Source of the DNA: a virus
Lineage: Duplodnaviria; Heunggongvirae; Uroviricota; Caudoviricetes
DNA: 37,256 nucleotides
IMG/VR virus record: IMGVR_UViG_2537561978_000007
Reading direction: 5' to 3' (one strand)
Shown: positions 8,830-32,208 of the stretch, piece by piece
Numbering within the stretch: position 1 is the first letter of the stretch
How the letters are laid out: each line of letters opens with the position of its first letter
Notes under the pieces: generated by a model
The model's input: only the letters and a program-made list of their open reading frames with translations
Database searches by the model: none
What the model was told of the DNA's origin: nothing
Position numbers and translations under genes: made by a program

Positions 8830-10002
8830 TTACGCGCTGACCTGGCTGGCGAAATTCACCAGGTACTGATCGGTGATGCGCTGACGCAACATCAGGTTTT
8901 CAAGTGGCGGCACTGGCGTGTAGTCGTAGTCGATGGTGAGTTTTCCGGCTTTCAGAGTGTCTTTGTCGTTCACCGACTCATCCAGCCAGCAATCACCACC
9001 AATGAGATACCCCTGACTGACCAGGCTGCGCATTTTGGCGCGGATGCCCTCGATAATGTCGCGCGCCAGCGACGGGTTCAGCGGTTTGTCCACTGCCCAC
9101 ATGTGCGCTTCTGCCATTGTGTCCGTCAGCACCTGCGCCGTGCGGGTGTAGTTTTCGAAGGCAAAGAGCGGGTCATCACTCAGGCAGCGGGAACCCCAGA
9201 AGCGAAAACCGTCTTTGCGGATAAGGGTGGTGACGTCGTTCTGGTTCAGCAGTCCCGCATCGCTTGCCGGGTCCTGCAGATCCCAGAACACATCAGCAGA
9301 AATTCCGGTGACACCGTTAACGCCTACGTTGGACAGGCTTTTGTGCCATCCGGTCTGCTCGTCAATTTTGGCGCGCAGACCAAGCGCACGGGCGGTGGCA
9401 TAAGCCGTTGCTTCGGCATTCAGCACCGTGTCCCAGCCAGTAAAGTCGGGCCAGATCAGCATTCCTTCACGCTGACTGAAGTTTTCACGGTAAGTGATTG
9501 CTTCCTGCACCGTCTTGCAACCATACGCTGACAGGTAAGCAAATCCACGCAGGCTTTGCGCCACGCTCAGCAACTCAGTAGCTACCGCCTTCGTGTCGTG
9601 ACCTGGCACGCCGAGAATGCGCGGTTTAACGCCGAGCTGTGACTGGGCAGATAACAGGGCTTTCATGCCTGTTTTTTTACCTTCAGCAGTCACTGCGCCG
9701 ATGATATTGGTCGTGGTTTCTTCTTCCGTTTCACCCTGCGGCACACGCACAACAACGGTCACGGGTTTTGCCTGGTCAGCGATGGCATCCAGCGAACGGG
9801 CCAGCGTACCGGACTCGCCCGCTTTACCGCTGGCAGTCAGCACATCAGTGATCAGCACGGGTTTATTAAGAGGAAACATTTTTGCATCGGCATCATCGCC
9901 CGTGCAGACCATACCCACGATGGCGGTGCTCACCGTGGTAATGGATCGGGTGCCTTCGTTGACTTCAACAACGCGCACTCCGTGGTGGTAATCCTGAGCC
10001 AT
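8830..10002 (-). CDS. FI: Contractile tail sheath protein
   Basis: 390 aa; P2 gpFI-like ([19 protein letters not shown]...). Confidence 0.9.
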
Positions 10003-10144
10003 AGTGGCGAACCTCCTGATTGGATTAGGCTTCGCCCTATGTTGAAGTGATTGTGCCTGACAAACAGCTAAGCGCAGTTGTACCGTTATTCACACAAAAT
10101 GACGGTATTTGTCTGCTTTCAGGGATAATCAAAATAAAGCTGAT

Positions 10145-10717
10145 TCAGGGAGATTCATTGCTCTTATTTGCCGGAAATTTTCTATAAATGGTAGAAACGC
10201 CTACATCAAAAATCAGTGCAATACGCTGTCTTGATTCTCCGGCCTCGAGTAAACGCCCAATCTGTGCCCACTGTTCGGTAGTCAACTTAGGACGGCGTCC
10301 ACCTACTCTGCCTTTAGCACGAGCTGCAGCCAGCCCTGCCCTGGTACGTTCAACTATCAGTTCGCGTTCCATTTCAGCCAGGGCACCCATGACATGAAAA
10401 AAGAAACTGCCCATTGGGGTACTGGTATCAATACTGTCAGTCAGACTTCGGAAATTCACGCCGCGCTGGCGCAACTCTTCTATCAGCGTAACAAGATGCC
10501 GCATACTGCGCCCCAACCTGTCCAGCTTCCAGACAACCAGTGTGTCACCTGCCGATAGTGTCCTGAGCAGTTTTTTAAGCCCCGGTCTGTCGGACTTAGT
10601 GCCACTGATTTTGTCCTCAAAAATCCGCTCACATCCCGCGCAGTTCAGCGCACTACGTTGCAAATCGGTGTTCTGGTCATTTGTTGACACGCGTACATAG
10701 CCAATAAGCATGATCAT
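10145..10717 (-). CDS. Serine-recombinase DNA invertase (Pin/Gin/Hin/Cin family)
   Basis: 190 aa; resolvase catalytic region IGYVRVSTNDQNTDLQ and C-terminal HTH; very similar to my recollection of e14 Pin; sits at the P2 Z/fun position beside an invertible segment; true start may be the Met at 10711. Confidence 0.9.
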   Translation of the reverse strand: MIMLIGYVRVSTNDQNTDLQRSALNCAGCERIFEDKISGTKSDRPGLKKLLRTLSAGDTLVVWKLDRLGRSMRHLVTLIEELRQRGVNFRSLTDSIDTSTPMGSFFFHVMGALAEMERELIVERTRAGLAAARAKGRVGGRRPKLTTEQWAQIGRLLEAGESRQRIALIFDVGVSTIYRKFPANKSNESP

Positions 10718-11138: not shown

Positions 11139-11582
11139 ATGGAAATGGTTTATAGCGCCTCAAATAATAGTTTTTTCGCTAAAAATGATGTGGCGAAATA
11201 TGAACAGGCCGGATGGGAACTTGCTGATATTGTCGAAGTGACATATGACACTTACCTGGAATTTATTGAAGACAGAACGTTGCAAGGGAAAGTACGCATC
11301 GCGGGTGATGATGGCCTTCCCACCTGGGGGGAAATTCCACCGCCAACTCATGAGGAACAAATTGCCGCAGCCGAACTGGAAAAGCAGCAATTGATTAATC
11401 AGGTCAACGAATACATATACAGTAAGCAATGGCCTGGTAAAGCAGCGATTGGTCGCCTGAAAGGTGAGGAACTGGCGCAATATAATTTGTGGCTGGATTA
11501 TCTGGACGCACTGGAACTGGTTGATACCTCCAGTGCTCCAGATATTGAATGGCCTACGCCTCCGGCAGTTCAGGCCAGATGA
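11139..11582 (+). CDS. Alternative tail-fibre assembly chaperone (Tfa/U'-like)
   Basis: 147 aa; C-terminal tfa motif ...DYLDALELVDTSSAPDIEWPTPP paralleling the minus-strand tfa (...DYIDAVTATDTSTAPDVIWPELP); 3' ends of the two tfa genes overlap convergently. Confidence 0.7.
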   Translation: MEMVYSASNNSFFAKNDVAKYEQAGWELADIVEVTYDTYLEFIEDRTLQGKVRIAGDDGLPTWGEIPPPTHEEQIAAAELEKQQLINQVNEYIYSKQWPGKAAIGRLKGEELAQYNLWLDYLDALELVDTSSAPDIEWPTPPAVQAR

Positions 11583-12156
11583 CGTCCGGCGCTGTGCTGG
11601 TATCTGTTGCCGTCACCGCATCAATGTAATCCAGCACAGCGTTAAGTCGGGTGTTTTCTGTCTGCGTCAGCTTCCGCCCGGCCTGCAATTTCAGTTGAAT
11701 CAGACTAATGGAAGCCATTGCAGTATCAATCAGTGACTGACGCTGTGCTTCTGCCGCGTCTAGTGTGGCGCTATGCTGTGCCTCAGTATCTGTCACCCAT
11801 TTCTCACCATCCCATTCATCGTATGGCGTTAACGGGGCGATAGTGGTTGTATTTTCAGGGTAATCACCTGGTGCTGTGATTTCTTTTGATTCTCCTGTTT
11901 CGGTGCTAAAAACGATTTCACCGCGATGGTCTGGCACATATTCCCATGAGTTAAAATCTGCAGAACGGCAGATTGCATAACCAGCTTTACATGTAACTGG
12001 TGAATCTAAACAGGAATATGCAGGGATACCGACACCAATGGCAAGATATTCATTTGAAGTAGAAATATATTCCCGAGTTTTACCATCATAGTTATAGACG
12101 GTAATATTCCCCGCCTTCGTGGCAATAATCTCGCTATTTAATACGGCGTTATCCAT
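11554..12156 (-). CDS. G: Tail-fibre assembly chaperone (gpG/Tfa), active orientation
   Basis: 200 aa; immediately downstream of H; conserved tfa C-terminus. Confidence 0.8.
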   Translation of the reverse strand: MDNAVLNSEIIATKAGNITVYNYDGKTREYISTSNEYLAIGVGIPAYSCLDSPVTCKAGYAICRSADFNSWEYVPDHRGEIVFSTETGESKEITAPGDYPENTTTIAPLTPYDEWDGEKWVTDTEAQHSATLDAAEAQRQSLIDTAMASISLIQLKLQAGRKLTQTENTRLNAVLDYIDAVTATDTSTAPDVIWPELPEA

Positions 12157-16225: not shown

Positions 16226-18184
16226 TCAATTAAACTTTACAGGTTTATCACTTATAAAAAAATTTTCAATTTTGGCAATCCACTCTGGCCTTTTCCGCTC
16301 ATTTCGCTCACAGATTGAAATATATTCCTTTGAAAAATCAAACTTAATTCCTTCACGGTCAAAAAAAGCATCAAGCGTTTTTTTGTTCTTGGGTGACAAA
16401 TCCATCGCAGCAAACGATGAATGTCTTTCATCTATCATAACATTACTATTAGGCAGCAATGCCTGAAGCTCAGGAAAACGTGAAGAAAATGATGTTAAAG
16501 CCTCTATAAACGATACAGGATTAAGACAATCCTCTATTTCTGTTGCAGGAGAAACTGGATTGGAAGAAATATCAACCAACTTCACTGAATCACCTACACT
16601 AACAATTCGCTTACAAACAACATGCGGCATAACTGGGGTATCATATGACACCAACTCTGAATCTGTATCGGTTAGTAAGAACACTTTTCCTTTGAGGTCT
16701 TTTTTGAACTCTTCATAAGAAGCTTCTAAATGCTTAAATATTTTTTTAACTTCACTAGCTCCCCCTACAGGCACAATCCTTAGCCTTTTATTTTCTACCA
16801 AGTCCTTTAGATAATGCGAAAGATATATTTTTTCTGTAGTACCCTCACAAATCAACCAATTGTAAGGTTTCTCAGCCAAACAGCTAGATATTATGGATTG
16901 TATAAGGTCATTTACACTTTTTATTTTTATATCAAATGGCATACCCGGGGAAGAGGTTTTTACTTTCTTCCTGACTTCTTCTCTATAACTGGCAAGATCA
17001 TATAATTCAAAATGATGAGTTGAATCTGTTTTAAGGATAGTTGTGGTACATCCATTTTCGACGGTTGGAAGATAGCCATACCAATGTGAAGTAAATATTA
17101 ATTGTTCACATATACCACTAATAGAATAGAGCTTTTCAAATTGTTCAAAACATGCAGACATATGAAGAGAACATTCTGGCTCATCAATTCCAATAATCAG
17201 ATTATCGCCATTTTCTCTATGATTGGTAAGAAACCCATATGCAATATCCATTATTGCACGTTGCTTCTCCCCTGAACTTAGCGAGCTAATTTCAATCCAA
17301 CCTGAATTCTGCTTTTTATTTAATTTCCTAACTTTGAAGAATGCTTCGATAATCAAATTATAAACATCTTTCTTTTTTAATCGCGATTGTCTCTCGCCAG
17401 ATGTTCTATAACCATATTCTTCAAGCTCCTCTTCAACACCATCCAGAAATTTGGCAAGCCCTGTATTGATTTGACTTATGGTTCTATCAGATATTCTATC
17501 TTTAATTATCTGCTCTAAAGACTCACCCATCAACTTTTGTACTTCACTTGTTTCTAGCTTCGTAAACGATTCAGAGTCTATATCCTTTGGAATATATATA
17601 TATTCATACTTATGGCGGACATGATGTAATAAATACCCAAAGTGCTTACTAAGCAACTCGCTCGAAACTTTATTATCGGGATTATCAACCTCCAAAAGTC
17701 GACATAAACTCTTCCCATTAAGAATCGAAATACTTACATCACCATCTTTCTCGACACCCAGAGGGATCAAAAAATAATCTTGGAGATTTAAATTTCTTTT
17801 TAATTTGTTAATATGTTCAAAAAACGTATTAATTATATTTCGTGTTGTTGGCGTCAATGTAACATCAGCATTACTATTGCTATATTCTAATACTAATTGC
17901 GTTAAGATTTCAGCTTTAGCATGATGATCTTCATGTAATTCCTCTCGCTTTATAAGATATAAAGGAACAATATGTGGAGAAGGTCTGTCACTGGAGGTTC
18001 TTTTAAATGAAGAATTAATATTCCATGGTTTGTTATTAATAAACGAATCTAAAGCCTCAAGAACAGAACTTTTGCCAATTCCATTGTTACCAACAATTCC
18101 ACAAAACTGACTTCCAGAAGATAACGGTATGTAATGATTTCCGTTGTATGTTTTAAAATACCTTAAAAAAATCCCTACTATCAT
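16226..18184 (-). CDS. OLD-family ABC-ATPase/Toprim nuclease (class-1 OLD-like or fused PARIS-like); anti-phage defence candidate
   Basis: 652 aa; Walker A GIVGNNGIGKSSVLEAL; ABC signature-like LSSGEKQ; Walker B/D-loop LIIGIDEPECSLH; H-loop TSH; C-terminal Toprim motifs ICEGTTE and LLTDTDSE; aligns by eye to P2 Old (LVGYNNAGKS, FIDEPELYLHP, LLVEGKTE, ADCDF); strongly AT-rich relative to flanking phage genes. Confidence 0.75.
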   Translation of the reverse strand: MIVGIFLRYFKTYNGNHYIPLSSGSQFCGIVGNNGIGKSSVLEALDSFINNKPWNINSSFKRTSSDRPSPHIVPLYLIKREELHEDHHAKAEILTQLVLEYSNSNADVTLTPTTRNIINTFFEHINKLKRNLNLQDYFLIPLGVEKDGDVSISILNGKSLCRLLEVDNPDNKVSSELLSKHFGYLLHHVRHKYEYIYIPKDIDSESFTKLETSEVQKLMGESLEQIIKDRISDRTISQINTGLAKFLDGVEEELEEYGYRTSGERQSRLKKKDVYNLIIEAFFKVRKLNKKQNSGWIEISSLSSGEKQRAIMDIAYGFLTNHRENGDNLIIGIDEPECSLHMSACFEQFEKLYSISGICEQLIFTSHWYGYLPTVENGCTTTILKTDSTHHFELYDLASYREEVRKKVKTSSPGMPFDIKIKSVNDLIQSIISSCLAEKPYNWLICEGTTEKIYLSHYLKDLVENKRLRIVPVGGASEVKKIFKHLEASYEEFKKDLKGKVFLLTDTDSELVSYDTPVMPHVVCKRIVSVGDSVKLVDISSNPVSPATEIEDCLNPVSFIEALTSFSSRFPELQALLPNSNVMIDERHSSFAAMDLSPKNKKTLDAFFDREGIKFDFSKEYISICERNERKRPEWIAKIENFFISDKPVKFN

Positions 18185-24270: not shown

Positions 24271-26037
24271 ATGAACACCACACTGACACCCGCAGATCTC
24301 GATCCCCGTCGGCAGGCCATGCTGCTGTACTTTCAGGGATACCGCGTAGCCCGCATTGCTGAAATGCTGGGCGAGAAAGTTGCAACTGTTCACAGCTGGA
24401 AAAAACGCGACAAGTGGGGTGACTATGGGCCGCTGGATCAGATGCAGCTCACCACCGCCGCACGCTACTGCCAGCTCATTATGAAGGAGCACAAAGAAGG
24501 GAAAGATTTCAAAGAGATTGACCTGCTGGCGCGCCAGTCGGAGCGCCATGCGCGGATCGGCAAGTTTAACAATGGCGGCAACGAAGCCGACTTAAACCCT
24601 AACGTCGCCAACCGCAACAAAGGCCCGCGCCGTCAGCCGGAAAAGAACGTTTTCACCGATGAACAGATTGAGAAGCTGGAAGAAATCTTCCATTCCTCCA
24701 TGTTCAACTACCAGCGCCACTGGTGGGAAGCCGGAAAAAACAACCGCATCCGCAACCTGCTGAAGTCACGCCAGATCGGCGCAACCTTTTACTTTGCCCG
24801 TGAAGCCCTGATTGACGCTCTGCTTACCGGGCGTAACCAGATTTTCCTTTCCGCCAGTAAGGCACAGGCCCACGTCTTTAAGCAGTACATCATCGACTTC
24901 GCCAAAGAAGTGGAGGTGGAGCTGAAAGGCGATCCGATGGTGCTTCCTAACGGGGCCACGCTTTACTTCCTAGGCACCAATGCCCGCACGGCCCAGAGTT
25001 ATCACGGCAACCTGTATCTGGATGAATATTTCTGGATACCAAAATTTCAGGAGCTGCGCAAAGTGGCTTCCGGTATGGCTATTCACAAGAAATGGCGACA
25101 GACCTATTTTTCCACGCCATCCAGCCTGACCCACAGTGCTTATCCGTTCTGGTCCGGCGCGTTGTTCAACCGTGGGCGCAACAAAGCCGATAAGGTGGAC
25201 ATCGACCTGTCCCACAGCAATCTGGCCCCCGGCCTGCTGTGCGCAGACGGGCAATACCGCCAGATAGTCACCGTGGAAGATGCGGTACGCGGCGGCTGTA
25301 ACCTGTTCGACCTCGACCAGTTGCGCATGGAGTACAGCCCGGACGAATACCAGAACCTGCTGATGTGCGAGTTCGTTGACGATCTCGCATCTGTGTTCCC
25401 GCTCAGCGAATTGCAGGCGTGCATGGTGGACAGCTGGGAAGTCTGGACCGACTTTCATGCACTGGCGCTGCGCCCGTTTGGCTGGCGCGAAGTGTGGATC
25501 GGTTATGACCCGGCAAAAGGTACGCAGAACGGCGACAGTGCCGGATGCGTGGTGGTGGCTCCGCCAGCCGTGCCGGGCGGTAAGTTCCGTATTCTTGAGC
25601 GTCACCAGTGGCGCGGGATGGACTTCCGCGCCCAGGCGGACGCCATCAAAAAACTGACCGAACAGTACAACGTGACATATATCGGCATCGACTCGACAGG
25701 TGTCGGTCACGGGGTTTATGAGAACGTGAAAGCGTTCTTTCCTGCCGTCCGGGAGTTTGTCTACAACCCCAACGTTAAAAACGCCCTGGTACTCAAGGCC
25801 TACGACATTATCAGCCACCGCCGTCTGGAGTTTGACGCCGGACACACCGACATTGCGCAGTCATTCATGGCAATCCGTCGCGCAACCACCGCCAGCGGCA
25901 ACCGCCCGACCTATGAAGCCAGCCGCAGCGAAGAAGCCAGCCACGCCGATCTGGCCTGGGCAACAATGCACGCACTGTTTAACGAACCACTGCAGGGCGA
26001 GTCCGCCAATACCAGTAATATTGTGGAGATTTTTTGA
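24271..26037 (+). CDS. P: Terminase large (ATPase) subunit P
   Basis: 588 aa; P2 gpP-like. Confidence 0.9.
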   Translation: MNTTLTPADLDPRRQAMLLYFQGYRVARIAEMLGEKVATVHSWKKRDKWGDYGPLDQMQLTTAARYCQLIMKEHKEGKDFKEIDLLARQSERHARIGKFNNGGNEADLNPNVANRNKGPRRQPEKNVFTDEQIEKLEEIFHSSMFNYQRHWWEAGKNNRIRNLLKSRQIGATFYFAREALIDALLTGRNQIFLSASKAQAHVFKQYIIDFAKEVEVELKGDPMVLPNGATLYFLGTNARTAQSYHGNLYLDEYFWIPKFQELRKVASGMAIHKKWRQTYFSTPSSLTHSAYPFWSGALFNRGRNKADKVDIDLSHSNLAPGLLCADGQYRQIVTVEDAVRGGCNLFDLDQLRMEYSPDEYQNLLMCEFVDDLASVFPLSELQACMVDSWEVWTDFHALALRPFGWREVWIGYDPAKGTQNGDSAGCVVVAPPAVPGGKFRILERHQWRGMDFRAQADAIKKLTEQYNVTYIGIDSTGVGHGVYENVKAFFPAVREFVYNPNVKNALVLKAYDIISHRRLEFDAGHTDIAQSFMAIRRATTASGNRPTYEASRSEEASHADLAWATMHALFNEPLQGESANTSNIVEIF

Positions 26038-27062
26038 TGGGAAAGAGTAAGAAGAACCGCGCTGCGTCGACGAACCAGCTCCAGCATAAAAGCCAGACTT
26101 CAGCCGAAGCATTCAGCTTCGGTGATCCCGTTCCTGTTCTGGACCGCCGTGAACTGCTGGACTATGTGGAATGCGTACAGACAGATCGCTGGTATGAGCC
26201 GCCCGTCAGCTTTGACGGACTGGCGCGCACCTTCCGCGCCGCCGTGCATCACAGTTCTCCGATTGCAGTAAAGTGCAACATTCTGACCAGTACCTATATC
26301 CCTCATCCGCTGCTCAGCCAGCAGGCTTTTTCGCGTTTTGTGCAGGACTATCTGGTATTTGGTAACGCCTACCTGGAGAAACGCACGAACCGATTCGGTG
26401 AAGTTATCGCCCTTGATCCTGCGCTGGCAAAATACACCCGACGCGGGTTAGACCTGGATACCTACTGGTTTGTGCAATACGGTATGACAACCCAGCCGTA
26501 TCAGTTCACGAAAGGCAGCATTTTTCATCTGATGGAACCGGACATCAACCAGGAGATCTACGGCCTGCCCGGCTATCTTTCTGCCATTCCGTCAGCCCTG
26601 CTCAATAAGTCCGCCACGCTGTTCCGCCGCAAGTATTACATCAACGGCAGCCATGCAGGCTTCATCATGTATATGACCGATGCCGCGCAGAATCAGGAGG
26701 ATGTGAACAATCTCCGCAACGCGATGAAAAGTGCCAAAGGTCCTGGTAACTTCCGTAACCTGTTTATGTACTCGCCTAACGGTAAAAAGGACGGGCTTCA
26801 GATTATCCCGTTGTCAGAAGTGGCGGCGAAGGATGAGTTCCTGAATATCAAGAACGTGAGCCGGGACGACATGATGGCGGCGCATCGTGTGCCGCCACAA
26901 ATGATGGGGATAATGCCTAATAATGTTGGAGGGTTTGGGGATGTGGAGAAGGCGAGTAAGGTTTTTGTTAGAAATGAACTAATTCCACTCCAAAAAAGAA
27001 TAATGGAAGTTAATGAATGGTTAGGTGAGAAAACTATCCGATTTCAGCATTATGATTTATAA
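26034..27062 (+). CDS. Q: Portal protein Q
   Basis: 342 aa; P2 gpQ-like; 4-bp overlap with P. Confidence 0.9.
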   Translation: MMGKSKKNRAASTNQLQHKSQTSAEAFSFGDPVPVLDRRELLDYVECVQTDRWYEPPVSFDGLARTFRAAVHHSSPIAVKCNILTSTYIPHPLLSQQAFSRFVQDYLVFGNAYLEKRTNRFGEVIALDPALAKYTRRGLDLDTYWFVQYGMTTQPYQFTKGSIFHLMEPDINQEIYGLPGYLSAIPSALLNKSATLFRRKYYINGSHAGFIMYMTDAAQNQEDVNNLRNAMKSAKGPGNFRNLFMYSPNGKKDGLQIIPLSEVAAKDEFLNIKNVSRDDMMAAHRVPPQMMGIMPNNVGGFGDVEKASKVFVRNELIPLQKRIMEVNEWLGEKTIRFQHYDL

Positions 27063-27087
27063 AAAAACGCCCTAAAAGGGCGTTTTC
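27063..27087. terminator. Bidirectional rho-independent terminator between Q and the convergent cargo operon
   Basis: AAAAAAACGCCC-taaaa-GGGCGTTTT; A-tract and T-tract on either side. Confidence 0.6.
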
Positions 27088-27534
27088 CTAAGATTCTGTC
27101 GTTGTCTCTAATGAACACCAAGCATTAATTCCCATTTTTGAGACAGCTATCAACATAATTACTACAGCTGGAGCAATAAATGTTGCTGTTGCCCCCAAAG
27201 AACCCGCAATTGCCGAAGAGATCACCCCTACAAAGTATGTTTTAACATCACCAGTCAGTGCTCCTAAACATTCCCTCTCCTCTGCATATTTATCACCTCC
27301 ACATACAAAAGCCTTAAACTCTAATTTAAACTGCTCAACAAACGCTTTTCTTCCCGGCATTTTTGAATTATCACCGCCAAATTGAGCAACTGAACTTGGG
27401 CCAGATGCAGTTAGCCATAGCTCAAGAGCCTTTTCTTCATCGCCATTTTCGAGAAAATTCCTGACAGATGAAGATTGATACGTTTTTAAAGTGGACAACC
27501 AAGACTCAGCATCTTCATTTGGTATAGCAATCAT
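27088..27534 (-). CDS. Small tail-anchored membrane protein, unknown function (cargo gene 2 of the protease cassette)
   Basis: 148 aa; soluble acidic N-terminus, C-terminal about 40-residue hydrophobic Gly/Ala-rich hairpin (YFVGVISSAIAGSLGATATFIAPAVVIMLIAV); ATGA overlap with upstream protease gene; AT-rich. Confidence 0.6.
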   Translation of the reverse strand: MIAIPNEDAESWLSTLKTYQSSSVRNFLENGDEEKALELWLTASGPSSVAQFGGDNSKMPGRKAFVEQFKLEFKAFVCGGDKYAEERECLGALTGDVKTYFVGVISSAIAGSLGATATFIAPAVVIMLIAVSKMGINAWCSLETTTES

Positions 27535-28178
27535 AACATATCCTTAACATATTCTGCAGAAACCGCATAAGTTGTCTGATGTAGTTCAGCTGGATTAATA
27601 CCTCCAACCAAAACAGAACCTCCAGAATTATTTGCATAAGCGCCAACCAAGACGCCTATTACCGAGTCATTTTTTAAATTAAATACAATCGATCCCGATT
27701 GACCAGGTCTGGTTTGGATATTTATAACGGCATGTTTAGATTGAATATTACTGCTTGAAAGTAAAACTTTTGCACCTATTTTTGCCGTTTGAAATGTCAA
27801 TACTTTTCTATTTTCATTACAATGTGGGAAACCTAAAATACCCACATCTTCACCGACATTAACATCGTCAAGAGTAGCAATTTTTAGGCAAGGTTCATAA
27901 ACAGGTGCATTTTTAATTTTTAACACACATAAGTCTTTTATTGGATCTTCATCAATAACATCAACTCCAATACATTGAAATTTATCAACACTTGTATCCT
28001 GATAACTATTAAAGTTATTTATATTAGATGGAGAAATAACTAAGTTAGAAGAAAACCCATTAATAACATGGCGGGAAGTAATTATTTTATCCTTAGAAAT
28101 AAAAAAACCTGTTCCTAAAAAACTAACCAAACCTGCATTAAGCACGCCAACAACTACGACATATTCAGGACCAATCAT
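27531..28178 (-). CDS. Trypsin-like (S1/Trypsin_2-type) serine peptidase, cargo gene 1
   Basis: 215 aa from the Met at 28178, with GGAG 6 nt upstream; catalytic-triad contexts GTGFFISKDKIITSRHV (His), DPIKDLCVLKI (Asp), TRPGQSGSIVFN (Ser); AT-rich. Confidence 0.7.
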   Translation of the reverse strand: MIGPEYVVVVGVLNAGLVSFLGTGFFISKDKIITSRHVINGFSSNLVISPSNINNFNSYQDTSVDKFQCIGVDVIDEDPIKDLCVLKIKNAPVYEPCLKIATLDDVNVGEDVGILGFPHCNENRKVLTFQTAKIGAKVLLSSSNIQSKHAVINIQTRPGQSGSIVFNLKNDSVIGVLVGAYANNSGGSVLVGGINPAELHQTTYAVSAEYVKDML

Positions 28179-28261
28179 AACAACTCCATTCTGTAATATG
28201 TTATGGACTCTGACTAAGACAATACTTAACCAAACCGTGAATATCAAGGTGCAAGCGCGCG

Positions 28262-28280
28262 CTCGTATCCCCGCCACGCC
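28262..28280 (-). other. Candidate cos cohesive-end sequence
   Basis: Minus-strand GGCGTGGCGGGGATACGAG; the first 13 nt match the P2/186 cohesive-end start GGCG(A/T)GGCGGGGA as I recall it; GC-rich island between Q-side cargo and the early region. Confidence 0.45.
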
Positions 28281-28622
28281 TGCCCGCTTTATGTAGTGGT
28301 TTTCATGCAGGAGCATGATCTACGCAAAAGCCCGCCAGTTCTGGCGGGCCTTAGCAAAAACGATCCTCAAACGATCATGCAATCTCATGCAGCATAGACA
28401 TGCACAGACGAGTAAAGCGAATCGGACTTTACGCAAGGTGAACTCCTCAGCGGGCATAATCAGTATGTCGGAAGATCTCTAAAAATAAATAATTCGGTTA
28501 ACAGGTATGCTTACAAAAGCATATATTTGATTAAAAATCATGTAAGGGGGAGGATCTCAAACTGAATCGCCACGGGTTTTACAAATTTCGATAGTCTCTC
28601 TAACGTTTCGGCTGAGGTCAAA

Positions 28623-29048
28623 ATGAAAAGCTTTTACGTATTAATTTTAATTCTGGTTGCAAGCTTTGTTAGCGTCCCTGTTCAGGCGGTAACAGCTAAA
28701 AACTATGAGAAAGGAACTAAAGCTCAACAGAAATCAATATCTTACCTTTCATGTGCATTCTATGGCAGTAGCACACAATTAGATCCTAGCTACACGGAGC
28801 AAGTACCTACAGCCGATATCAAGATATTACAGAAAGCAGCTTACCACGCTTACAACGATGCGCTCTCATACTTTGGCTATGAGGAACCAGATCACGAACA
28901 ACGCATAATTGATTATGCTGAATTTGTGGCGTCGCAAGAAGCTGTGTTATGGGATAAGCCGGGAATGAATGGAAAGCAGGTAACACTAATTGCTCGTTCT
29001 CTCTACAATGAGAGTAACTGTAACTTGTTACTGGACTCAATTAAGTAG
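28623..29048 (+). CDS. Secreted protein of unknown function (moron)
   Basis: 141 aa; signal peptide MKSFYVLILILVASFVSVPVQA; GAGG RBS; candidate promoter TTTACA-N17-TAACGT upstream; AT-rich. Confidence 0.6.
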   Translation: MKSFYVLILILVASFVSVPVQAVTAKNYEKGTKAQQKSISYLSCAFYGSSTQLDPSYTEQVPTADIKILQKAAYHAYNDALSYFGYEEPDHEQRIIDYAEFVASQEAVLWDKPGMNGKQVTLIARSLYNESNCNLLLDSIK

Positions 29049-29207: not shown

Positions 29208-29441
29208 TTAATGCAGCCAGCTGTCGTCTTCCCACACCTTCTGCATAATCTTCATCACTTGTTTTCTTTCTTCGTCCAGTTGCAGTCCGGTCAGTTCCAC
29301 ACCGTTAGAGCTACCTTTGCGGATGCGAATTACCGTTTTGGGATACAGGGGGCGCAGATTGCGGTAAAGCTCGGATTCAAGGGCGTCCAGGGTAGACTGG
29401 CTAATCTTCTGCTCTTTATCGATCATTATTTCAATGCGCAT
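29208..29441 (-). CDS. DinI-like protein (C-terminal-like part of a 186 Tum-type antirepressor module)
   Basis: 78 aa from MRIEIMIDKEQ...; aligns with E. coli DinI (MRIEVTIAK...ALAGELSRR...QETWE); GAGGTGA RBS. Confidence 0.7.
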   Translation of the reverse strand: MRIEIMIDKEQKISQSTLDALESELYRNLRPLYPKTVIRIRKGSSNGVELTGLQLDEERKQVMKIMQKVWEDDSWLH

Positions 29442-29451
29442 AAAGGTCACC

Positions 29452-29640
29452 TCAGCTGATGACATCCATTGAGCGGTTGTATTCGTGGGTTCTGATTTTT
29501 GCCATGAGTTCATCTGTCAGTTCAGAAACCCACTGCAAAGCCAGCCCCTTCTCTTCATCACTACACTCACTAGCCGCTACAAGCTTAAGAAAAAAATCAA
29601 TGCGCTGGAGCTTCAAAGACTCCAAAAAATAGTCCTGCAT
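29452..29640 (-). CDS. Small hypothetical protein upstream of the DinI-like gene
   Basis: 63 aa from MQDYFLESL...; start placed downstream of the LexA box; stop 10 nt before the DinI-like start. Confidence 0.4.
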   Translation of the reverse strand: MQDYFLESLKLQRIDFFLKLVAASECSDEEKGLALQWVSELTDELMAKIRTHEYNRSMDVIS

Positions 29641-29793: not shown

Positions 29794-32208
29794 TTAATAC
29801 AGGTTTCGCCACTTATCATCTTCCTGCAAACGCTGGTTCCGATAGAAGATACGCAGGCCTGCTCCTGACGGAATACTGCCGCCGCGAAGGAGTAAATCGA
29901 CCTCTTTCTCGCTGCCATTAAATCCTCTGGACTTCAGTTCATAGACGAGCTGCTGTCGCTGATGGTCTATAATTCGCTGTTTGTAGTCTTTACGCCGTTT
30001 CGGTTTCACCAGGCGTAACCTTGCAGCCAGTTCCCGGCGCTCTTTTTTGCTCATACTGTGCAGGTAATCGTGCAACTCCTTGTCATCCATGCGGGTAATG
30101 TCCGTCCTGGTATCCCCATCAGCTGATTTGTCTTTCCCTTGTTGGTTCAAATTTTCAGCAAGGGGACAGTTATTGCCACGAGTCCAAGGGGCGCAAGCGC
30201 CCTGGTCGGCTGCCGCCTCCTGAACGTCAACGGCTTTACGAACCATTTTCCACTTCACTGCATGAGTGCAGATCTTGCCTTCTGCAATGGGTGACCAGAT
30301 GCCATAAATACGAATACCGTGATCGCCATAGGCGGTCGGCTCTTCATTGATTTCATAAGCGGTTCTGATCAAGTGATATTTGCGAGGAACCAGCACGCCG
30401 CCCTGCCTCATAATGTAGGTGGCAAAACAGCCAGCATCAGCAGCAGCCAGGATGGCATCAAGGCGCGGGTTATCCAGTACCGGCGCACCTGCTTTTTTGT
30501 CACCCTGCTGCCTTGCCGCCTGACCAGCCAACAACCGCAGTTCACGGTAAGCCTGACGCCCTGGAATACCAAAGAAGCGGAATTGCTGAACACGATGCAG
30601 AGACGCCCAGGCATTAACGTATTCAGCGTTATCACGCAGGGATTTACCCGTTTCCTTGCTGATCTCGCCAGCCAGACCACGCCCGTCAATGTTCTTACTG
30701 ATGTATTTCGCGATGTAGCTTGTCGGCGTTCCTTTGCGCGGGTTTATCAGCTCAGATTTAAAGCGTGGACCAGTGTTATTACCCAGTTCCTCGCGGTCTT
30801 CACGGATGGCAAACTTACGCAACAATGCAGTAATGGCGCGGCGGTCTTTTTTGCGCATAAAACACAACAGGTGCCAGTGAACTGTACCGTCATGATGCGG
30901 CTCAGCCACCCGCACGCCATACCAGCGCAACCCGGCTTTGTGCATCGCCTTACGAAATGCAGCAAACATGCCGACCAGATAATCGCTGCTTTGTCTTACC
31001 GTCGCATTTGTCCAGGTTGGGTTTGGTCTGCCGTTATTGAGCGTGGAATGGAAACGTGACGGACAGGTAATGGTGTAGAAAACGGCGCAGTCACCGCGCA
31101 TTTCCGCGATAAGCTCCAGACCTTTAACACAGGCCATCATCTCATTGCGGCGGTGCGCCGGGTTGCTGCTGCTGGCGTTTACCACGTCTTCCATATCCAG
31201 CGTGTCGCCCTCTTCGTTCACCAGTTCATGAGAACGGAAAAACTCCAGTGACTTGCGGCGCTGCTCACGTTTATGCATCACGGCTTCATAGCTGACATAG
31301 GGAGATGCTTTTTTGCTGACCAGGCAGACAGCACGCAACTGCTCTTCCCGCCATTCGCAACGCATTTTCCATAATTTCCGGTACCACCAGTCGGCGCACA
31401 ACATACGCGCCAGCGAACCCGGAATGAGTTCATAGGGCACGGGTTTACGGCGGTTTCTTTTCCGACGGAGTTGCTCAAACGCAGGCGGGATGACATCCAG
31501 ACGCAGGGTTTCCGCTGCCACCTTTTCCCATGTCTTGCGGATTTCTTCTGGCTTAACGTCATCGGTGGCATACAAATCACCACAAGCTGCATCAAGGCAC
31601 ATGCTCATATGCGCAGCGACAAGGGTAGACAGGCGTTTCACCTGATCCTGACTCATTTCAGGCAGAATCAGCAGGCCGTCCAGCCCTACATGGCTTGCCA
31701 TAAAACGAAAAGATGCAGATAGCTGGCTGTCGCGTACATGCTCCAGTCGTTCCAGACATGGCTTAATCGTCTCACGTAAATAGCGGGAATAAGCCTTTGG
31801 CCTGCCCAGGCTGCTGAAGTATTCAATACGTTGCATCAGCGGCTTGCTGATATGGGAAGGCTGGGCGTTGACGTCCGCCAGAATGACCATATCCGGATTA
31901 AAACGCTGCTGCTCATGCGCCAGCTTTGCCCGGCTAATGAGCTTATCCTGCTCCATTTCGTGCTGGACAGGATCACGTGATTCATTAAAAAAATAACGCT
32001 CCCAGACCTGATCACTCAGTGCCTCGCGGCGCAACTGTTCCTGCTCGTTATCGGCAGCGTACAGAGTGATCAGGTTTGAAAGCGCAGAAACCGGCGCAAC
32101 TTCCGCCGGGTCCAGATAAGGGTTAATGGCCTTTTTCGGGCTGTTCCATGAGAACGCTGCGGCAGCCTCGTTAAAGCCGCAGCAGTTGTTCATATCGGCA
32201 TGGCTCAT
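29794..32208 (-). CDS. A: Replication initiation protein A (rolling-circle nickase)
   Basis: 804 aa; P2/186 gpA-like; position upstream of the tum/cos region. Confidence 0.85.

Follow-up and report, generated by a model that had tools for sequence, protein, structure and literature searches.

The 37,256-nucleotide viral sequence IMGVR_UViG_2537561978_000007 (the window, by which we mean this whole stretch of DNA) is a 186/P2-like prophage with genes for CI, CII (CP76), an integrase, gpA, Dam, terminase, portal and tail proteins. Between its portal gene Q and its cohesive-end site, cos, lies a cassette of two small overlapping genes on the minus strand, gene A for a trypsin-like serine protease and gene B for a small membrane protein. 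The best explanation of this cassette is that it is an independently transcribed moron in the slot between Q and cos (Q|cos), within the gpA–gpQ hotspot of a 186/P2-like Escherichia coli prophage; by its profile matches, it is a member of the candidate system PDC-M35 of PADLOC-DB v2. An anti-phage defence function is probable. As a reading of the whole, we tentatively favour PDC-M35 cargo that would act by abortive infection, through cleavage of B by A.

The assignment to PDC-M35 comes from both genes. A matches the model PDC-M35A with an E-value of 8e-94 and 311 bits, residues 5–215 corresponding to profile positions 6–216 of 216 (residues 51–261 if numbered from the longest open reading frame, see below), and B matches the PDC-M35B model PDLC04594 with 4.3e-58 over residues 6–145 of 148, with two further M35B models matching at 2e-39 and 5e-19. 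The two genes lie side by side on one strand, as expected for PDC-M35, and at the sequence level nothing separates the pair from this family, which is itself a computational prediction. The phage defence candidates (PDC) are a set of 145, described as untested by their authors, which were selected because they are embedded in BREX, DISARM or type I restriction–modification (R-M) loci and were curated against non-defence functions (Payne et al. 2024, bioRxiv 10.1101/2024.01.29.577857).

The genomic location has a history of its own. The cos-proximal region from gpA to gpQ is a defined and partly validated defence hotspot of P2-like phages (Rousset et al. 2022, PMC9122126), and the two proteins of the cassette, WP_001350593 and WP_000560513, stand in Table S5A of that study in the arrangement 'Trypsin_2 + hypothetical ... 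DinI' with a flanking hypothetical protein; this arrangement is outside the set that Rousset et al. cloned (PMC9122126). Present both in the PADLOC catalogue and in a published table of the P2 hotspot, the pair is already known as a catalogued candidate, and the initial annotation, made from the DNA alone, was mistaken in calling the module undescribed. Its value lies in testing rather than in discovery. One cloned pair of the same study, 'Peptidase + TM' (pFR104), was considered as the same system and rejected: its peptidase is an unrelated protein of 161 residues with an HEXXH motif (HELAHH), which we read as a metallopeptidase of the ImmA/M78 type, and its partner, with one transmembrane (TM) segment, is unrelated to B as well; the pair was not reported active (PMC9122126).

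The longest open reading frame (ORF) of gene A extends from 27531 to 28316 and would give a protein of 261 residues. This start was rejected, as the first 46 codons cross cos and the conserved backbone and match an unrelated PHROG. We place the start at the ATG at 28178 because the homologues, 213–217 residues long, are conserved from Met1, the PADLOC profile begins there and RefSeq annotates the same interval (27531–28178, WP_001350593.1, 'S1 family peptidase'; gene B is WP_000560513.1, 'hypothetical protein', 27088–27534). GGAG lies 5 nt upstream of this ATG. The initial annotation had drawn the cassette from 27088 to 28260; both of its genes are real, but with A starting at 28178 the segment 28179–28260 is an untranslated leader with a promoter-like site and is not coding.

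The product of gene A matches the Pfam family Trypsin_2 (PF13365) over the complete profile (positions 1–144 of 144) with 58.2 bits against a cut-off of 27.6, and Trypsin (PF00089) with 35.9 against 20.6. Its motifs TSRHV, KDLCVLKI and GQSGS, already recognised as catalytic-triad contexts when the DNA was first read, hold His37, Asp82 and Ser161, which are invariant, together with 36 other positions, among 25 diverse homologues (39 of 215 positions). Alignment of the triad to S1 peptidases in a profile had been set beforehand as the test of this assignment, and such an alignment is found: a profile of the 25 homologues matches SplE, V8-type glutamyl endopeptidases and HtrA/DegP in the PDB, for SplE the alignment pairs the His and Ser of A with catalytic residues, and for a glutamyl endopeptidase (motifs HVV, SDLAIL and GNSGS) it does so for all three residues of the triad. 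The AlphaFold2 (AF2) model is beta-rich, with about 13 strands (predicted local distance difference test, pLDDT, 82; predicted template modelling score, pTM, 0.82). A signal peptide or TM segment at residues 7–25 (Kyte–Doolittle, KD, hydropathy 1.97) was considered and rejected: the model places beta-strands at 7–14 and 17–26, the Trypsin_2 match begins at about residue 22, and the stretch is less hydrophobic in the homologues. The hydrophobic N-terminus is thus modelled as the first two strands of the fold, in agreement with the early remark that the protein has no signal peptide. On these comparisons, A is predicted to be a bona fide cytosolic serine protease of the S1/PA clan and the Trypsin_2 family. 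Residues 181–200 (NNSGGSVLVGGINPAELHQ) belong to the most conserved parts of the family (GGINPxELHQTT) and are also the sole part of the model with pLDDT below 50; this segment may become ordered only on binding B or a substrate.

Gene B has no match in Pfam or NCBIfam, and comparison of its model with the PDB and BFVD gave no significant fold match. The AF2 model, built on a 65-sequence alignment, is all-helical (pLDDT 83, pTM 0.80), and judged by it the B family is structurally novel. Short helices at residues 9–13, 18–30 and 33–42 lead into a low-confidence loop (43–59), after which come amphipathic helices at 60–77 and 81–91, a C-terminal hydrophobic hairpin rich in Gly, Ala and Ser (helices 98–113 and 117–134; KD maximum 2.32 at 113–131) and a short helix that ends in the conserved NAWC. 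Hydropathy and model therefore agree with what had been proposed at the outset, a protein of 148 residues with a soluble helical N-terminus and a C-terminal hydrophobic Gly/Ala-rich hairpin. The loop divides the acidic N-terminal helical part from the part that bears the hairpin. It is the only conserved low-confidence loop of the protein, with pLDDT below 50 at 46–50 and 54–59, and it contains an invariant Gly53 and a Phe52 conserved in at least 90% of the sequences. The most conserved residues are Leu16, Tyr19-Gln20, Trp40, Phe52-Gly53, Glu72, Cys78, Tyr83, Gly114, Pro122 and Cys140. A profile search with B gave 1115 representatives at 50% identity; the matches listed are all standalone proteins of 114–197 residues, most of them of about 140–170. 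For A there are 487 homologues, in a family of about 215 residues with about 50% identity across phyla, and profiles so broadly populated show that A and B are more than chance ORFs.

The two genes are linked by their distribution. A scan of A-family loci, with one genome per species, gave 80 loci in at least eight phyla (Bacteroidota, Proteobacteria, Firmicutes, Planctomycetota, Chloroflexi, Actinobacteria, Cyanobacteria and Spirochaetes). In about 75 cases, a B homologue of 137–164 residues comes directly after the protease gene, at a distance mostly between −16 and +17 nt and commonly of −1, −4 or −8; its sequence carries the motif ...ISAALGATLGFAATLLAPAVAIMLxxVGKMGINAWC. The exceptions are truncated or frameshifted genes or contig ends, and when B was taken as the starting point the protease was found directly upstream in both look-ups, so that the pair does co-occur elsewhere, as a module should. 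The identity matrices of A and B are correlated (Mantel r = 0.86; the highest value in 500 permutations of the labels was 0.11). The mean identity across phyla is about 50% for A and about 35% for B. Near-constant adjacency and correlated matrices together imply that A and B are an obligate, co-inherited unit. The pair is carried by six plasmids and otherwise by prophages and chromosomes.

Within the window, the cassette stands out from the backbone in composition and in conservation. Its GC content of 0.29–0.41, against 0.52–0.61 for the P/Q backbone, bears out the much higher AT content reported in the initial annotation, and the proposed translational coupling of two overlapping genes is visible in the minus-strand ORFs, where the stop of A and the start of B overlap as ATGA and an AAGGA Shine-Dalgarno sequence for B lies inside the 3′ end of A. 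On the Q side, nucleotide similarity to related phages runs out near 27023, about 40 bp short of the Q stop, and the conserved backbone restarts at about 28242, beyond the cassette on the cos side. The cos flank (28242–28400) is conserved in 1274 E. coli genomes, only 13 of which have the cassette; in a search of 5426 complete E. coli genomes, these 13 were the only ones with cassette DNA, and in each it adjoins the portal gene. The portal gene itself appears to be affected by the exchange: GC content falls already within its last ~300 bp (26750–27062), and Q of this phage has a variant portal C-terminus (...RFQHYDL), from an apparent recombination joint. Taken with the point at which similarity stops, the drop in GC suggests that the joint of the cargo is inside the 3′ end of Q.

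On the other side of the cassette, the candidate cos site proved to be real. The cos core at 28280–28262, GGCGTGGCGGGGATACGAG, is a close match to the P2/P4 cos core, GGCGAGGCGGGGAAAGCAC, printed in Table S2 of Rousset et al., and the position of the cassette between Q and cos stands as first described. The cassette is thus found where hotspot cargo is expected, between gpQ and gpA, adjoining cos, and with a content that varies among related phages, and like other cargo of the P2 hotspot it is AT-rich. On the P2 map, old and tin are on the gpA side of cos. Placing the cassette in the variable region in which P2 carries old and tin was therefore correct as to the hotspot, but the Q|cos slot is on the opposite side of cos.

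Two signals bear on independent transcription. A 25-bp gap with a GC-core hairpin separates the stop of Q (27060–27062) from the stop of B (27088–27090), and on the minus strand the stem is followed by a T-run, from which we infer a terminator function. The hairpin is absent from a consensus terminator scan, probably because extension of the stem through A–T pairs uses up the T-tail. The promoter candidate upstream of A (28247–28219) matches at 9 of 12 positions, and such sites are no commoner in the region than in shuffles; we regard it as weak evidence. The features of the region are collected in Table 1.

Table 1. Coordinates of the cassette and of the surrounding prophage features in the window.
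Feature	Position	Strand	Remarks
Terminase gene P	24271-26037	+	ORF list
Portal gene Q	26034-27062	+	ORF list; stop 27060-27062
AT-rich island, GC 0.29-0.41	27000-28242		horizontally acquired cargo in the Q|cos slot
Bidirectional intrinsic-terminator-like hairpin AAAACGCCC-TTTTA-GGGCGTTTT	27064-27086	unstranded	read from the sequence
Gene B	27088-27534	-	148 residues; PDC-M35B; RefSeq WP_000560513.1
Gene A	27531-28178	-	215 residues; PDC-M35A; RefSeq WP_001350593.1
Sigma-70-like promoter candidate TTGATA-17-TATTGT	28219-28247	-	upstream of A, at the edge of the AT-rich island
cos core, 19-nt cohesive-end sequence GGCGTGGCGGGGATACGAG (minus-strand reading)	28262-28280		sequence compared with Table S2 of Rousset et al.
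gpA	29794-32208		replication gene

The same slot in related phages, and the neighbours of the pair in other bacteria, point to defence. Klebsiella phage Kp4845-2 (OK490395.1), whose Q gene is 93% identical to that of this phage and which has the same cos flank, carries a Lamassu system in the Q|cos slot (at about 9.35–12.24 kb; LmuA 1.7e-142, LmuB 2.3e-253), an occupancy showing that defence cargo is exchanged on the Q side of cos in its own right. In Klebsiella P2-like prophages, the slot is occupied by an A/B pair that is 75% identical to the one described here, in one case alongside a reverse-transcriptase gene. In Clostridium perfringens, the pair is located between HsdM/HsdS and HsdR of a type I R-M system, a position that matches the selection criterion of the PDC set. 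Elsewhere, the pair forms a moron on the strand opposite to the surrounding tail genes of a Mu-like prophage (Aeromonas), lies amid P4-like genes with AbiEi and ParE/Phd (Pectobacterium), is carried on a Rep3 contig (Acinetobacter) and occurs among transposases and integrases (Alkalicella). The 133 nearest large ORFs at 35 diverse loci were surveyed qualitatively, without a matched control; they are led by integrases, OLD/Septu-type ATPases, SLFN helicases and transposases. By Pfam family, the neighbours include Phage_integrase (7), AAA_15 and AAA_21 (5 each), SLFN-type helicase (4), SMC_N (4), rve (3) and ResIII (3), and their PADLOC matches include PtuA (1.8e-104), Old (4e-96), MkoA/MkoC and type II methyltransferases.

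The C. perfringens locus also contains a second module. Directly downstream of A/B, at 9214–10651, are genes for a SMODS nucleotidyltransferase and a SLATT_4 membrane protein, so that two small cargo modules (A/B and SMODS+SLATT) are nested in one R-M locus.

How might such a pair act? The suggestion in the initial annotation, a membrane effector under the control of a protease that would serve abortive infection or superinfection exclusion, is plausible and has precedents. In the mechanism that we favour, A would be a small cytosolic S1 protease and B a latent membrane effector, and together they would protect the lysogen by abortive infection. Upon infection, A would cut the exposed flexible loop of B at about residues 43–59, around Phe52-Gly53-Gly54 (the site is a guess), and so remove the N-terminal helices; the freed C-terminal part with its hairpin would then oligomerise and permeabilise or depolarise the inner membrane. 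We favour this direction because defence-associated trypsin-like domains cut loops in their partners and because B has one conserved low-confidence loop. In HamA, Avs1a, LmuA and DRT fusions, a trypsin-like domain switches on the effector encoded alongside it through cleavage of disordered loops (Tuck et al., Science 2026; 10.1101/2025.07.28.667249), and in Hachiman and AVAST the partners are co-inherited, co-evolve and are cut in disordered insertion loops (10.1101/2025.07.28.667249). Besides PDC-M35A, the only defence models that A matches are those with a fused trypsin-like domain: RT-Protease_XI (3.6e-17), LmuA (1e-12), HamA1 (3e-6) and also Avs1b. Some physical interplay between A and B appears rather likely, if a little less so than a defence function of the cassette. 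That A cleaves B to activate it is, as a claim of its own, doubtful. More doubtful still is the notion of a sensor-less two-gene module, in which A itself would detect infection and would turn the new-fold helical B into a membrane pore; if true, it would be a bacterial counterpart of the caspase/BID or protease/gasdermin logic, built from unrelated parts and present in at least eight phyla.

A number of observations weigh against the favoured mechanism or against a defence role in general. The cassette contains no recognisable sensor domain (ATPase, STAND or helicase), which leaves the trigger unexplained, and this weakness is shared by the model, discussed below, in which B tethers or inhibits A. 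The scores of A against the defence-fused protease models are no better than that against the generic Trypsin_2 (58 bits) and indicate no special kinship. The higher conservation of A (about 50% identity, against 35% for B) fits a universal cellular target of the protease equally well. Among sequenced phage records, the cassette is absent by DNA search and by tblastn, and B occurs in 0 of 50,697; around the pair in Xanthomonas and Ancylomarina there is no sign of defence. With regard to the catalogue, other authors also term the PDCs unvalidated, and four of eight such candidates were active in one source, while PDC-M63 and PDC-S04 were inactive in another, which sets the base rate at about one half. 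The searchable literature, which leaves supplementary tables and subscription journals uncovered, holds no paper that names PDC-M35 or the WP accessions and none that tests the pair; nor is there a test of this pair in the DefensePredictor, Domainator, cold-seep, native-host and domain-centric discovery papers.

The main rival to the favoured mechanism exchanges the roles of the two proteins. A would be the effector, and B a membrane tether, inhibitor or sensor that holds A inactive at the inner membrane until a perturbation of the membrane (DNA entry or a holin) or a phage protein frees it, whereupon A would cleave a conserved protein of the host or the phage. This would be the logic of Lit or IetS: Lit is a zinc protease and an abortive defence gene, and IetAS consists of an S8 serine protease and an ATPase. 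The likeness extends to a protease on a mobile element that is possibly the toxic component restrained by a partner, as the serine proteases of IetAS are; those enzymes, however, belong to clans M and S8 rather than to S1/PA, and neither has a small membrane protein as its partner. The high conservation of A (39 of 215 positions invariant, about 50% identity) is what a universal substrate would lead one to expect, and the conserved but low-confidence segment 181–200 (GGINPxELHQTT) would suit a surface that is ordered by a partner. Yet where trypsin-like domains fused to HamA or Avs1a have been dissected experimentally, they are activators and not killers, small proteins with a hydrophobic hairpin in defence operons are usually effectors (such as the TM effectors of CBASS, Thoeris, retrons and Rst), and no candidate substrate is known. 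We consider this rival unlikely.

The same low probability is given to the view that the cassette is not directed against phages at all and is instead a toxin–antitoxin (TA)-like addiction or stabilisation module, or other cargo of lysogenic conversion. Small overlapping two-gene operons on prophages, plasmids and satellites, beside transposases, are what such a module would look like, about half of the tested PDC candidates showed no defence, and the P2 hotspot also bears partitioning systems and a cytolethal distending toxin (PMC9122126). Of the features of a type II TA module, only the form of the operon is seen; neither A nor B matches a TA family in Pfam or NCBIfam. Against the addiction view stand the pair inside the type I R-M locus of C. 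perfringens, beside SMODS+SLATT, its allelism with Lamassu in the same slot and the way in which the PDC set was picked, by embedding in defence systems and with curation against non-defence functions; besides, TA and abortive infection can coexist as functions.

Least probable, and in our view very unlikely, is non-abortive superinfection exclusion (Sie), in which B would position A on the cytoplasmic side of the inner membrane, A would degrade incoming ejection or pilot proteins or the DNA-entry channel would be blocked, and the cell would survive: the prophage location, the tight coupling of protease and membrane protein and the ability of P2-like hotspot systems to act on related phages (AC1 is an example, PMC9122126) speak for it, but Gram-positive and Gram-negative hosts alike carry the pair, in chromosomal R-M islands and on plasmids, and their very different envelopes and phages argue for a general mechanism inside the cell more than for one that recognises particular ejection proteins; moreover, Sie proteins are usually lineage-specific.

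The favoured reading, abortive infection through cleavage of B by A, is best placed by comparison with known systems. Close in logic are the pairs described by Tuck et al. in HamMAB, AVAST type 1, Lamassu and DRT, in which a Trypsin_2-type protease likewise co-evolves with a neighbouring effector gene. There, the protease is fused to a sensor or a defence enzyme and its partner is an MBL-fold pronuclease; here, A is a stand-alone protein of 215 residues, and B, encoded downstream, is a small membrane protein without a nuclease domain. The helicase, STAND or SMC sensor of those systems is absent from the cassette, which contains no further gene. Bacterial gasdermins are latent pore formers that are cut by a neighbouring protease, trypsin-like in Lysobacter, with the death of the infected cell (Johnson et al. 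2022 and Wein et al. 2025, as summarised in PMC13434031). The likeness to gasdermin systems is the proposed release by a protease. B, by comparison, has no gasdermin domain or fold and no Pfam match, being an all-helical hairpin protein, and the cassette has no NLR or CARD partner. In retron type XI, only the protease part of RT-Protease_XI matches A (positions 348–486 of 506), and neither protein of the cassette has a Pfam match to RVT.

If the pair were validated, it would constitute a compact defence system (1.1 kb) that spans phyla, with an effector family of about 1100 clusters at 50% identity. Validation would also carry a recently established principle, the activation of a co-evolving effector by a protease, beyond nucleases to effectors of the membrane and to a protease that stands alone, without a dedicated sensor. 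A structurally novel effector family in a strong genomic context makes the cassette a worthwhile, if unsurprising, target for experiments.

Further cargo is scattered along the same prophage. A second AT-rich island (GC 0.30–0.37) adjoins the baseplate gene V at 16226–18184 on the minus strand. Its product is a single protein of 652 residues that combines an ABC-ATPase domain (AAA_15/AAA_21) with an OLD-like TOPRIM domain and matches AriA (1e-21) and Old (2.4e-11) in PADLOC, neither of which is a strong match to a named system; it is probably another defence cargo. We take its slot to be the one that holds orf30 in P2. On the gpA side of cos, between cos and a DinI-like gene (29208–29513), the interval 28623–29048 on the plus strand encodes a protein of 141 residues with a signal-peptide-like N-terminus, which matches phrog_7437 (4e-99, unknown function) and has no match in Pfam or PADLOC; with a GC content of about 0.40–0.43, it looks like accessory cargo. 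Finally, a serine resolvase/invertase (Resolvase + HTH_7, 8e-53) is found beside a tail-fibre assembly gene (10145–10717 and 11554–12156, both on the minus strand), an association that suggests an invertible tail-fibre switch of host range of the Gin/Cin type.

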